DNA of 42,183 nucleotides from Chloroflexota bacterium (GTDB lineage Bacteria; Chloroflexota; Limnocylindria; P2-11E). The notes beneath the pieces were generated by a model. The model searched no databases. It was not told where the DNA came from and was given only the letters and a program-made list of their open reading frames with translations. This document shows positions 13,625-38,908 of this stretch, in pieces. The stretch covers positions 1 to 42,183 of the forward strand of contig JACPEQ010000042.1 of assembly GCA_016183435.1 (NCBI GenBank). The letters are read 5' to 3'. The position numbers and the translations under genes were made by a program. Numbering within the stretch: the stretch's first letter is position 1; each line of letters starts with the position of its first letter.

Positions 13625-14560
13625 GTGGCGACGACGACGGCGAACGCGCCGCGTCTGGCTGAGGGGGAGTGGCGCCGGCCTGCCCGATCCCTCTGGAGCG
13701 ACGCGTGGCACCACTTCCGGCGGCATCGCCTCGCGATGGCCGGCGTCGTCGTCCTGGGGATCATCGTCGTCGCGACGCTGTTCGGTCCCCTCCTGTGGAC
13801 GGTCCCGTACCAGAAGCTGGACTACTCGGCGGCGCTGGTCGGGCCATCGCCCGCGCATCCGTTCGGCACGACCGACCTCGGGCACGACCTCTTCGCGCGG
13901 ATCCTGTGGGGCGGCCGGATCTCCCTCGCCGTCGGGCTGACCGCGGTGCTCATCGCCATCTCGCTGGGCACCCTCGTCGGCGCGCTCTCGGGGTTCTTCG
14001 GCGGGACGCTCGACGACCTCCTGATGCGGCTCACCGACATGTTCCTGTCGCTGCCGCAGCTGCCGTTGCTGCTCCTGACCATCTACCTGTTCCGTGACAT
14101 GTTGCGGGAGCTGGTCGGACCCGAGCTCGGGATCTTCATCCTGATCGTCACCGTCGTCGGCGCGCTCACGTGGATGCCGACGGCGCGGCTCGTGCGCGCG
14201 TCGTTCCTGTCGATCAAGCGGAAGGAGTTCGTCGAGGCCGCGCGCACCGTCGGCGCCACCGACCGGCGGATCATCGTGCGTCACATCCTCCCGAACGTCA
14301 TGAGCCCGGTCCTCGTGTCCGCGACGATCGGCGTCGGCGCGGCGATCATCACCGAGTCGGCCCTGTCGTTCCTGGGTCTCGGGTTCCCGTCCGACGTCCC
14401 GAGCTGGGGGCGCGTGCTGTACGACGCGCAGAACTTCATGGAGATCGCCCCACACTGGGCGATCTTCCCGGGGATGTTCATCTTCCTCACCGTGCTCTCG
14501 ATCAACTACATGGGGGACGGTCTGCGCGACGCCCTCGACCCGCGCCGCACCCAGCGCTGA
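13625..14560 (+). CDS. peptide ABC transporter permease (OppC/DppC-like)
   Basis: HPFGTTDLGHD, EFVEAARTVG, GDGLRDALDPR; start GTG 13625 or ACG 13616. Confidence 0.93.
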   Translation: MATTTANAPRLAEGEWRRPARSLWSDAWHHFRRHRLAMAGVVVLGIIVVATLFGPLLWTVPYQKLDYSAALVGPSPAHPFGTTDLGHDLFARILWGGRISLAVGLTAVLIAISLGTLVGALSGFFGGTLDDLLMRLTDMFLSLPQLPLLLLTIYLFRDMLRELVGPELGIFILIVTVVGALTWMPTARLVRASFLSIKRKEFVEAARTVGATDRRIIVRHILPNVMSPVLVSATIGVGAAIITESALSFLGLGFPSDVPSWGRVLYDAQNFMEIAPHWAIFPGMFIFLTVLSINYMGDGLRDALDPRRTQR

Positions 14561-15132
14561 CGCTCGCCAAGCCGCTCCCGCGCTCCTTCTACGCGCGGTC
14601 CACGCTGGTCGTCGCCCGCGCCCTGCTCGGGAAGGTGCTGGTCCACGACGGTATGAGCGACTCTCGTGCCGCGCGCATCGTCGAGGTCGAGGCTTACCTC
14701 GGCGCCGACGACCCGTCGTCGCACGCATACCGAGGCATGACGCCGCGGAACCGCCCGATGTTCGGCGAGCCCGGACACGCCTACGTCTACCTCAGCCACG
14801 GCGTCCACTTCTGCATGAACGTTGTCGCTAAGAGCGCGGGCCGCCCCGCCGGCGCGGTGCTGCTGCGCGGAGCCGAGCCGCTCGACCCCCACGACCGCCC
14901 GCGCGCTCTCGCCGGACCCGGCCTCATCGGCCGTTGGTTCGGCCTGACGACGGCGCACGGCGGCCTGGATCTCGTTCGATCCGCCCTCACGCTCCACGAC
15001 GCGCCGCCGGTCCCCGCGGCGCTCGTCGGGCGCTCGGCGCGGATCGGCCTCTCGACCGGGCACACGCTGACGAAGGCGTGGCGGTTCTACGTTCGTGGAT
15101 CGCCGGGGGTCTCGCGCGCTCCGCGACAGTAG
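14557..15132 (+). CDS. mpg: DNA-3-methyladenine glycosylase (MPG/AAG family), probable CTG start
   Basis: LPRSFY..VARALLGK, IVEVEAYLG, PGHAYVYLSHGVHFCMNVV, AVLLRG. Confidence 0.92.
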   Translation: MTLAKPLPRSFYARSTLVVARALLGKVLVHDGMSDSRAARIVEVEAYLGADDPSSHAYRGMTPRNRPMFGEPGHAYVYLSHGVHFCMNVVAKSAGRPAGAVLLRGAEPLDPHDRPRALAGPGLIGRWFGLTTAHGGLDLVRSALTLHDAPPVPAALVGRSARIGLSTGHTLTKAWRFYVRGSPGVSRAPRQ

Positions 15133-15142
15133 GCTCTGCGCC

Positions 15143-35803: not shown

Positions 35804-38077
35804 ATGCCCATCACCAAGACGCAGACCACCATCAACGGGAAGCTCTTTGTGCTCGAGACCGGGAAGTACGCAGAGCAGGCCGGCGGTGCGGTCACCATCC
35901 AGTACGGCGACACGGTCGTCTTCGCCGCGGCCTCGGTCTCCGCCACCGTCCGCCCCGGTATCGACTTCTTCCCGCTCACCGTCGACTTCGAGGAGCGCCT
36001 CTATGCGGCCGGCAAGATCCCCGGATCCTTCCCGCGGCGCGAGGGCCGTCCCTCCGAGGAGGCGGTCCTCACCGCCCGGCTCGCCGACCGCCCGATCCGC
36101 CCGCTCTTCCCGAAGGGCTTCCGCAACGACACCCAGATCGTCATCTACGCGCTCTCCGCGGATCAGGAGCACGACCCCGACGTCCTCGCGGTGAACGCCG
36201 CGTCCGCCGCGCTGGCGATCTCGCCGGCGCCGTTCGGCGGGCCGATCGGGTGCGTTCGCGTGGGCACGGTCAACGGCAAGCTCACGCTGAACCCGACCAT
36301 CCCGCAGATGGAGCAGAGCGAGATGGACCTCGTCGTCGCGGGGACGCGCGACCGGGTGATGATGCTCGAGGCCGGCGCGAACGAAGTGCCCGAGGATCGC
36401 ATGATCGAGGCCATCGAGCTGGCACAGGCGGGCATCGCCGCCACGATCGACGTGCAGGAAGAGCTCGTGCGCCTGGTCGGCAAGCCGAAGATCCAGTGGA
36501 TCCCCGAGAAGGTCGAGGCCGGGAAGGACTCGCGCATCACTCGATACCTCGCGGACCGCATCCGCGCGAAGGTCCGCCATCCCGACAAGGCACAGCGCGA
36601 GGCGGGGCTCGACGAGGTCCGTCGAGAGGCCGTCGCCGCGCTCGCGACCGCCGACGGCGACATCAGCGAGGCCGACGTGGCGCTCACGTTCGACGCCCTT
36701 CTGAAGAACGAGGTCCGGCGCGCGATCCTCGAGGAGGGCATCCGTCCGGACGGGCGCGGCCTCACGGACATCCGGCAGCTCGACATCGAGGTCGGTCTCC
36801 TGCCGCGCACGCACGGCTCCGCGCTCTTCAAGCGCGGGCAGACGCAGATCCTGTCGGTGACGACGCTGGGCCCGACCGCGGACGAGCAGATCATCGACAC
36901 GCTCTCCCCGGTCGACTCCAAGCGATACATGCACCACTACAACTTCCCGCCGTTCTCCGTCGGCGAGGTCCGGCCGCTCCGTGGTGCGGGCCGCCGCGAG
37001 ATCGGACACGGCGCGCTCGCGGAGCGCGCCCTCGTGCCGGTGATCCCGACCAAGGAGGAGTTCCCCTACACGATCCGTGTCGTGAGCGAGACCTTCTCCT
37101 CGAACGGCTCGACGTCGATGGCGTCCACGTGCGGCTCGACGCTGTCGCTCATGGACGCCGGCGTGCCGATCAAGGCCATGATCGCAGGCATCTCCATCGG
37201 CCTGGTGACCGCCGATCCTCCCGGGGGGGCCCGGGAGGGCGATGACTTCCGCCTGCTCACCGACATCCAGGGCATGGAGGACAACTACGGCGACATGGAC
37301 TTCAAGGTGGCCGGCTCCGAGAAGGGCATCACCGGCATCCAGCTCGACATCAAGATCCATGGGCTCACGAAGGAGGTCGTCCGCGGCGCGATCAGGCAGG
37401 CACGCGAGGCGCGCATGACGATCCTCGAGACCATGCGGCGCGTCATCGACCGGCCGCGCGCGGAGCTCAGCCACTGGGCCCCGCGCATCGAGACCATCAA
37501 GATCCACCCGGACAAGATCCGCGAGGTCATCGGCCCCGGCGGCAAGATGATCCGGGCCATCCAGTCCGAGAGCGACTCCAACATCGAGGTCGAGGACGAC
37601 GGCACCGTCCGCATCACCGGCGCGAAGGCGGAAGGTCGCGAGAGGGCGAAGCAGATGATCCTCGGGCTCACGAAGGAGCCGGAGGTCGGCGAGGTCTACG
37701 ACGGCAAGGTGACGCGGATCATGTCGATCGGCGCGTTCGTGGAGTACCTCCCGGGCAAGGAGGGCCTCGTCCGCGTCTCCGAGCTCCCGGGGGAGCGTGT
37801 GAACCGCGTCGAGGACGTGGTCAAGGTCGGGGATGCGGTGAAGGTCAAGGTCGCCGAGGTCGACCGCCAGGGACGCGTGAACCTCTCGATGCGCAGCGTC
37901 GGCGAAGAGGGCACGCGGGCCTACGAGGAGCGTCAGCGCGCCGAGCGCGATCGCTACCGCACACGCGAGGGCGGGGACGGCGGCGAGCGCCGAGGGCCAC
38001 CCGGCGGGTTCCGCCGCGGCCCGGGTGGTCCCGGCGGCTTCGGCGGCCCGCGCCGCAGCGGGCCGCCCCGCGACTAG
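35804..38077 (+). CDS. pnp: polyribonucleotide nucleotidyltransferase
   Basis: [34 protein letters not shown] and S1 domains; Gly/Arg tail. Confidence 0.98.
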
Positions 38078-38086
38078 GGCGCGGGC

Positions 38087-38908
38087 CTGGGAGGGCGCAA
38101 GCCCCGGACCGGCCTCGTCGTCACCGCTGACGACCTCGGGTACAGCCGGGGCGTCGACCGGGCGATCCTCGCCGCATACCGCGACGGGGTCGTGCGGTCG
38201 ACGTCGCTCCTCGTGACCTTCCCGCGCGCGCCCGAGGCGGCCGAGCTCGCACGCGCCGAGCGCGGCCTCGAGGTCGGGCTGCACCTGGACCTCGTCGAGG
38301 GAACGCCGGTCTCGGACCCCTCCGACGTGCCGACGCTCGTCGACGACGACGGGGCCTTCCTCGGACTGGCCCGGCTCTTCGCGCGCGTCGCCACCGGGCG
38401 CGTCCGCGTCGCCGAGATCGCGACCGAGGTCCGTGCGCAGGCGTCCCGCGCCCGCGACCTCGGGACGCCGGCACTGGCCTGGGACTCCCACCAGCACACC
38501 CACCTCTTCCCGCTCGTCGCGCGCGTCGTGGGTGGGATCGCGCGCGAGCAGAGGGTGCGGTGGCTGCGCCGCGCGTGGCCGCTCGGCGGGCCGCGTGGAT
38601 GGAAGGGCACCGCGCTCGGCCTCGCGACCGCGGCGAGCTTCTCCTTCCTCCGCACGGTGCCGGGCAACGACCGGCTCGTCGATCTCACGTTCCGCCGTCC
38701 GCCGGCCGATCCCGCGTGGGTCGGGCTCCTCGCCACACTGGAGGGCGTGGTGGAGGTCGTGACGCACCCGGGCCCGGCCGAGGGGGATCCGAACGACCGG
38801 ATCGCCACGCTCCGCGCGCGCGACCTCGCGCTGCTCACCGACCCGCTCCTGCGTCAGGCGCTCGGCGACGACATCGTGCGCTGGCGGCTACCGGTGAGAC
38901 CGGCGTGA
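38087..38908 (+). CDS. ChbG/HpnK/YdjC family deacetylase (start non-canonical or unclear)
   Basis: LVVTADDLG, GLHLDLVEG, DSHQHTH, EVVTHPG; in the same frame as pnp. Confidence 0.88.
   Translation: MGGRKPRTGLVVTADDLGYSRGVDRAILAAYRDGVVRSTSLLVTFPRAPEAAELARAERGLEVGLHLDLVEGTPVSDPSDVPTLVDDDGAFLGLARLFARVATGRVRVAEIATEVRAQASRARDLGTPALAWDSHQHTHLFPLVARVVGGIAREQRVRWLRRAWPLGGPRGWKGTALGLATAASFSFLRTVPGNDRLVDLTFRRPPADPAWVGLLATLEGVVEVVTHPGPAEGDPNDRIATLRARDLALLTDPLLRQALGDDIVRWRLPVRPA

Follow-up and report, generated by a model that had tools for sequence, protein, structure and literature searches.

How does translation of a bacterial gene begin when its conserved N-terminus is encoded upstream of every in-frame ATG, GTG and TTG? 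This question is raised by four plus-strand genes, mpg, ruvA, ylxR (rnpM) and ydjC, on a contig from a Chloroflexota bacterium (GenBank: JACPEQ010000042.1), which was analyzed over its full length of 42,183 nt and is referred to below as the window. A preliminary description, made from the DNA alone, had proposed that these genes need near-cognate start codons. Its coordinates and sequences for the four genes match the window DNA. Its central claim also holds: when family models were mapped onto stop-to-stop translations to set the N-termini, these models, together with relatives, placed all four N-termini upstream of the first in-frame ATG, GTG or TTG. In total, 4 of the 37 genes with a 5′ end in the window have no canonical start (5 if infC is included), and the other 32 have an in-frame ATG, GTG or TTG at or before the first model position. 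According to the Hecht preprint (10.1101/063800), the annotated starts of 79 model genomes are ATG (81.8%), GTG (13.8%) and TTG (4.35%). Since these three codons make up nearly all starts in those genomes, the density of non-canonical starts in the window is far above the usual. The explanation that we favor, with moderate confidence and judging from sequence, is near-cognate initiation by ribosomes that have just terminated at translationally coupled junctions, a trait that would be recurrent across the class to which the window belongs.

An IF2 protein scan of the genome collection returned 80 loci. In 25 of them (L001-L003, L006-L025, L028 and L029), IF2 is 64-84% identical to that of the window, and most of these loci are titled Candidatus Limnocylindria or Chloroflexota. 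By this similarity, the window falls into the Chloroflexota class Candidatus Limnocylindria. The remaining 55 loci, from Anaerolineae, Dehalococcoidia, Proteobacteria and other groups, were used as controls, and the survey covered about 15 gene families around one operon cluster. Three of the 25 related loci, L002, L009 and L025, are titled Saccharimonadales, Acidiferrales and Udaeobacter, respectively. Their IF2 is 72-74% identical to the window's and Limnocylindria-like, and these bins are probably mislabelled or contaminated.

The 5′ ends of ruvA, mpg, ylxR and ydjC

The clearest case is ruvA (26571..27134, plus strand). The proposed start codon, CTG 26571, overlaps the ruvC stop TGA (26572-74) as CTGA, and GGAGGG is found 6 nt upstream of it (26559-64). 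In agreement with the preliminary description, position 1 of the model TIGR00084 falls on 26571. The first canonical codon, GTG 26625, lies 18 residues into RuvA_N, and the open frame contains no canonical codon in the 202 codons upstream. Among the related loci, 17 carry ruvA and one of these is cut by a contig end. At the codon corresponding to the CTG, 15 of the 16 usable loci have ATG (5), GTG (9) or TTG (1), in every case as NTG-ATC overlapping the ruvC stop TGA; the window reads CTGATC. The 16th locus, L001, reads TTC-ATA-G, with ATA over TAG as ATAG, and has in addition a GTG five codons upstream. Six residues (I+1, G+6, R+11, G+12, H+15 and V+17) are invariant in all 17 rows, with two to four synonymous codons each. 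Of 119 database RuvA relatives, 99 begin at this codon or the next and one is longer; the other 19, mostly the closest relatives (79-88% identity), begin 8-27 residues inside the domain. The database entry for the window's own RuvA (P0121) starts at GTG 26625, 18 residues short. The preceding gene, ruvC (26059..26574, plus strand), begins with GTG 26059 in a GTGA overlap with the yebC stop and is the canonical counterpart of the same junction architecture.

The region following ruvA has features of its own. A minus-strand cassette of a PIN-domain toxin and a Phd/YefM antitoxin (27168-27798) lies directly after the gene. On either side of it is a copy of a 147-nt direct repeat that corresponds to the 3′ end of ruvA (26980-27124 and 28035-28177; 82% identity); the downstream one is frameshifted. 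There is no ruvB after ruvA, and the next gene is nusA.

The second CTGA overlap belongs to mpg, which encodes DNA-3-methyladenine glycosylase (14557..15132, plus strand). Here the proposed start, CTG 14557, overlaps the stop TGA (14558-60) of an oppC-type permease gene. The need for a start at this codon is upheld by the model NF002003, position 1 of which falls on 14557. A start at the first canonical codon nearby, GTG 14635, would fall 17 residues inside PF02245, and the sole canonical codon in the open frame upstream is GTG 14170, 129 codons inside oppC. Of 119 database relatives of Mpg, 88 contain the block LPRSFYAR..LLGK and the other 31 begin within this conserved N-terminal block. The window's database entry (P0001, 159 aa) starts at ATG 14653 and is 32 residues shorter than the homology-defined protein. 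That the CTG matches the start of the orthologues is plausible, as judged from the protein model only.

For ylxR/rnpM (29505..29837, plus strand), the start is not pinned to one codon and may be ATC 29505, CTG 29529 or the canonical GTG 29547. The frame is open from 29277, without any ATG, GTG or TTG through 29546 (84 codons). ATC 29505 follows GAAGAGG and lies within the end of nusA, the stop of which is at 29513-29515. CTG 29529 corresponds to position 2 of the RnpM model NF047356, 29538 to position 1 of PF04296, and GTG 29547 to the V of RTCVAC; a start at this GTG would drop the invariant P-x-R-T-C. In an alignment of the window and 20 related loci, P+1, R+3, T+4 and C+5 of the PQRTC motif are invariant in 21/21 rows, with two to four synonymous codons, and Q is present in 17/21. 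These invariant residues with synonymous codons indicate that the stretch is translated. An in-frame ATC just before the nusA stop is common to the window and nine loci. It lies in GAT-CGN, which codes for the C-terminal D-R of NusA, after a purine-rich run of Lys/Arg codons. At the orthologous ylxR start site, L020 has CTG and L017 has GCG where L016, L021 and L028 have GTG. In sum, it is true that no canonical codon precedes GTG 29547, as had been described, but the start proposed at ATC 29505 or CTG 29529 cannot be placed.

The fourth gene, ydjC (38087..38908, plus strand), is in frame with pnp behind a single stop, TAG 38075-38077. Its frame opens at 38078, and this stop lies 3 codons upstream of CTG 38087, the sole first-position near-cognate codon of the gene, 9 nt after pnp. 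The first canonical codon, GTG 38192, is 27 residues into the domain, and the ADD motif would be lost with a start there. The gene is intact (276 codons, GC3 0.93), with PF04794 matched from 38114 over positions 2-264 of 266 (E = 1.6e-49). T+12, A+13, D+14, D+15 and G+17 are invariant in 6/6 rows, and their synonymous codons vary (2-4). Five relatives have a glycosyltransferase gene (~240 aa) between pnp and ydjC, with the methyltransferase gene after ydjC, and their ydjC starts with ATG or GTG two residues before L-V-V-T-A-D-D. The window has no such glycosyltransferase gene, and the native ydjC ATG aligns to ACC 38108. The start is therefore missing because a deletion took the upstream glycosyltransferase gene together with the native ATG. 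Thus, the preliminary description was right that no canonical codon precedes GTG 38192, but the cause is a deletion and not a start-codon substitution. The gene may be expressed from CTG 38087, via readthrough of the in-frame pnp TAG, or not at all, and its expression is the least certain of the four. In three related loci, the post-pnp glycosyltransferase gene is itself in frame with pnp behind a single TAG (L012, 19140-19200; L014, 9741-9800; L018, 20695-20750). No ATG, GTG or TTG is found there before the conserved LPAYNE, only CTG, ATC or ACG.

Conserved, selected coding sequence is therefore found before all in-frame ATG, GTG and TTG codons at the DNA level in ruvA, ylxR and ydjC and at the protein level in mpg. 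In the first three genes, invariant amino acids combined with synonymous codon changes upstream of the first canonical codon argue that those codons are translated. On this sequence evidence, all four genes appear to be real and their conserved N-termini are probably translated. The cases are of unequal strength. Both ruvA and mpg have a clean CTGA (26571-74 and 14557-60, respectively), and in ruvA the near-cognate codon occupies the canonical position of the orthologues. It does not in ylxR, where that position is inconsistent, or in ydjC, which may be decaying. The ylxR candidates range from 8 nt before to 14 nt after the nusA stop. In all four cases, and in most of those seen in relatives, the start region coincides with an upstream stop on the same strand or lies only a few codons from it (CTGA, ATAG or just after), a location that fits termination-reinitiation.

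One further gene, infC (5460..6224, plus strand), encodes IF3, which discriminates against the rare start codon (AUU or AUA) of its own gene; this is the basis of infC autoregulation. In the window, ATA 5460 falls at about model position 2, the model N-terminus lies near 5457, and the frame does not reach a canonical codon until GTG 5502. The ATA start that had been reported for this gene is confirmed by four NCBI-named relatives that begin M-AELRVNDQ at the aligned codon. Of 121 infC rows, 89 are called from internal codons at +8, +11 or +14, and the window's database IF3 (P0241), called from 5502, is 14 residues short. The protein carries a Pro/Ala-rich C-terminal tail of about 89 residues (5964-6224, ending in RTQRPA), compared with a class median of 88 residues and a range of 26-155 in the 121 rows. 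The core aligns well to solved IF3 structures. In comparison with E. coli chain 8jsg_A, Y66 aligns with Y75 and the RFRGRE segment is conserved; Y75 and this segment (R131) are presumably fidelity positions in the E. coli protein. A defect of IF3 was considered as a cause of the missing starts and rejected on the conservation of this tyrosine and of RFRGRE. The preliminary description had offered relaxed start selection during termination-reinitiation, or a group of IF3-sensitive genes larger than infC, as hypothetical causes. The conserved core, together with the class-wide non-canonical infC start, argues that IF3 discrimination still operates.

Recurrence among related loci and the surrounding genes

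For the survey, each family was given an anchor, and the open frame was searched for a canonical codon up to and including it. A locus was counted as a gap if it had no such codon (first number below) or had one only at a distance of more than 15 codons upstream (second number). In Limnocylindria loci the gaps amount to 3 + 4 of 13 for ruvC, 2 + 13 of 20 for ylxR, 2 + 3 of 22 for truB and 3 + 4 of 19 for ribF. The corresponding control values are 0/13 for ylxR, 0/50 for truB and 0/6 for ribF, or 0/69 combined, and ruvC is not present in the controls. The start was always canonical in Limnocylindria loci for nusA (19/19), yebC (13/13), rbfA (25/25), rpsO (15/15), ydjC (5/5) and the methyltransferase (4/4), and it was canonical in 12/13 for pnp, where the exception, L015, has a run of N at the site. 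This pnp locus was left out of the curated counts, as were fusA2 of L010 and L017 (IF2 cross-hits) and control infB (N-terminus not alignable). The proposal that the pattern belongs to the lineage is therefore supported, with gaps recurring in ruvC, ylxR, truB, ribF and the glycosyltransferase gene. The trait is recurrent in the class Candidatus Limnocylindria, and it is neither a peculiarity of the window nor an error.

An automated version of the survey, in which clustered stop-to-stop frames were anchored at the first conserved block, gave 45/213 instances scored 'none' in Limnocylindria and 1/151 in high-G+C Proteobacteria. The 45/213 value is inflated by families with conserved 5′ leaders (nusA, rpsO and yebC) and by off-frame low-complexity families. 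For this reason, the automated survey was set aside and the curated per-family counts were used.

At ribF, ATG or GTG is the usual start among the loci and often overlaps the upstream stop as NTGA. Two loci, L011 and L014, carry ATC at that codon instead, and an in-frame TAA lies four codons before it. In five other loci (L002, L013, L015, L019 and L022), the sequence is CGA-ATA-G, with ATA overlapping the upstream TAG as ATAG. The ruvC start site reads GTG in L021 and L028 but GTA in their sister L020.

Two of the unusual starts proposed for the window itself are unnecessary. In truB (32244..32990, plus strand), the canonical GTG 32244 falls at model position 4 and suffices; the ACG at 32223 that had been put forward aligns with ATG in one clade of relatives. 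Likewise, the oppC-type permease gene (13598..14560, plus strand) has a usable canonical TTG 13598 or GTG 13625.

The window has about 70% G+C and consists of housekeeping operons, largely on the plus strand. In window order these are thrS and infC-rpmI-rplT-pheST, the opp transporter followed by mpg and mutS2, yebC-ruvC-ruvA, nusA-ylxR-infB-rbfA-truB, and finally ribF-rpsO-pnp-ydjC and rnj. Between truB and ribF lies a conserved gene of 525 codons (32885-34462) with no Pfam or NCBIfam match. It has orthologues in 19 related loci, mostly starting 9 codons upstream of the window's ATG 32975. The only tRNA gene in the window is tRNA-Val (GAC) at 52-126; no initiator tRNA gene was found in the window or in the 25 related loci.

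Explanations for the missing canonical starts

Under the explanation that we favor, the ribosome would stay on the mRNA after termination and reinitiate at a weak codon. This would be CUG for mpg and ruvA, and AUA or AUC in relatives. We infer the use of these codons, their reading by formyl-Met-tRNA and the dependence of initiation on upstream termination. In E. coli, initiation from CUG, AUA, AUC and AUU reaches about 1-2% of the AUG level, according to the preprint cited above (10.1101/063800). Because a ribosome that has just terminated would remain on the mRNA, a weak codon may be enough for low-abundance repair and RNA-modification proteins. The affected genes do encode low-abundance repair, RNA-modification and cofactor enzymes, and ATG or GTG is retained for the abundant products of the same operons.

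A number of observations weigh against this explanation. A canonical codon located only far upstream is weak evidence of use, yet it is no proof of non-use. At 70% G+C, the chance of a canonical codon within 30 codons is about 65% by our own arithmetic estimate. No Shine-Dalgarno sequence precedes CTG 14557 of mpg, and GGAGGG (38090-38095) sits after the CTG of ydjC, not before it. For ylxR, no near-cognate codon is consistent among relatives, and the stretch from the nusA stop to RTC contains none at all in L001, L011 and L012. Furthermore, reinitiation in E. coli uses initiator tRNA, is modulated by IF2 and IF3, and is itself inhibited by IF3 (PMC2268962). Coupling alone is therefore not an obvious bypass of IF3 proofreading.

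Could the proteins simply begin at the downstream GTG codons (14635, 26625, 29547 and 38192) and be shorter, the upstream similarity being an untranslated relic? The database entries P0001 and P0121 of the window were called from a start of this kind or from a later ATG. In addition, 6 of the 21 ylxR rows have no canonical codon within 57 codons upstream, and all 6 carry GTG at +6, which is present in 5/15 of the other rows. This hints that GTG 29547 is usable as the ylxR start, although the rows are phylogenetically non-independent. The upstream codons, however, keep invariant amino acids with synonymous variation, and the +6 V codon of ylxR is not GTG in 9/20 relatives. Moreover, a start at the downstream codons would remove 17-27 Pfam residues, including the YdjC ADD motif and the first strands of RuvA domain I. 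We regard this possibility as unlikely. A slightly better case, though still an improbable one, can be made for some of the genes being decaying pseudogenes that have lost their start, ydjC above all. The deletion upstream of ydjC, which removed its ATG, and the lack of both ydjC and the glycosyltransferase gene in the closest relative, L006, are what such decay would predict. The intact frame of ydjC, its codon usage and its near full-length Pfam match are not, and the frames of ruvA, mpg and ylxR, all conserved housekeeping genes in single copy, are intact as well.

Base-call or assembly errors that turned ATG or GTG into CTG in the window are very improbable. The CTG of ruvA is indeed one base away from the GTG or TTG of relatives, and no second, independent assembly of this species turned up; the best relative in the database is 88% identical. 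However, four separate genes are hit, and neither ylxR nor ydjC could be fixed by changing one base. The gap also recurs in many independent assemblies and is inherited by sister genomes, examples being the ATAG of five ribF loci and the ATC shared by L011 and L014. Among the database relatives, 19/119 RuvA and 31/119 Mpg sequences are likewise called short; this fits the same gap having been met by gene callers in independent assemblies, although these entries were assessed as proteins and not as DNA. Fusion to the upstream protein by stop readthrough or frameshifting, giving PNPase-YdjC, PNPase-glycosyltransferase (in relatives) or NusA-YlxR, is also quite unlikely. The in-frame position behind one TAG, with no canonical start, of ydjC in the window and of the glycosyltransferase gene in L012, L014 and L018 would suit it. 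These three loci share ancestry, so the arrangement does not represent four independent events; nusA and other genes here also end in TAG as their normal stop; and neither mpg nor ruvA shares a reading frame with the gene before it. A nusA-ylxR frameshift or fusion was rejected, as no slippery site was seen at the junction and the sequences there differ among relatives.

A broader version of near-cognate reinitiation can be put forward only tentatively. The whole class Limnocylindria may have a widened start repertoire (CUG, AUA and AUC) at coupled junctions, affecting about one gene in ten, perhaps with little codon dependence in ylxR and the post-pnp genes, and perhaps linked to the IF3 tail of about 90 residues. 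If this is true, standard gene callers truncate or misplace a sizeable share of the proteins of these abundant soil and freshwater bacteria. In the database, between roughly a sixth and a quarter of the ruvA and mpg entries of relatives seem to be cut short like those of the window. Homology-aware start calling would be needed for annotation, structure prediction and family alignments in the lineage. Non-canonical starts are treated as rare, a handful per genome, and here an abundant uncultured class may use them routinely at coupled junctions. It would also offer a natural system for studying loosened start-codon fidelity with respect to IF3, initiator tRNA and reinitiating ribosomes.

Comparison with known systems

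No paper linking Chloroflexota or Limnocylindria with start-codon usage was found in the literature that was searched, and the main Limnocylindria genomics paper (PMC13212565) has no mention of 'start codon' or 'initiation codon'. Several known systems are nevertheless comparable in part. In infC autoregulation a rare AUU or AUA start is the target of IF3, and the window infC shares such a start (ATA), a non-canonical start being kept there across the class. The other window genes differ from infC in that they are not known IF3 targets.

The stop-start overlaps resemble the -4 overlaps (ATGA or GTGA) of translational coupling (PMC10666635, PMC2268962), which are described as the commonest coupling geometry (PMC10666635). 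Both mpg and ruvA keep the NTGA overlap, and the ruvC-ruvA and ribF junctions of relatives read ATGA or GTGA. Unlike in the overlap survey, which regards non-canonical starts at overlaps as rarities or mistakes of annotation (PMC10666635), the overlapping start is CTG in the window and ATA, in ATAG, in relatives. Another parallel is recJ of E. coli, in which a GUA start in a coupled gene is subject to IF3-dependent suppression (Haggerty and Lovett 1997, as cited in PMC2268962). As in our genes, the non-canonical start belongs to a gene coupled to an upstream frame, and recJ expression is IF3-sensitive. However, the recJ case is a laboratory mutant rescued by IF3 mutations, whereas in the window the state is natural and the IF3 core is ordinary-looking.

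The closest precedent is Deinococcus, in which dnaA starts with ATC, rpsL and Deide_03051 with CTG, and infC with ATA (PMC2830850). In that paper, the CTG and ATC starts are backed by proteomics, with two of the four genes supported by mass spectrometry, and its authors asked whether such starts might be more frequent in some phyla. In both systems, conserved N-termini extend upstream of any ATG, GTG or TTG, the codons are CTG, ATC and ATA, the trait is kept among relatives and gene callers mis-annotate the genes. The Deinococcus cases number four in a whole genome; the present ones are 4 of 37 genes in a single window, with recurrent cases in related loci, and all of them are at operon-internal coupled junctions and known from sequence alone. 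Therefore, the phenomenon taken singly is known, but its density, its class-wide recurrence and the CTGA and ATAG forms of overlap appear to be new.

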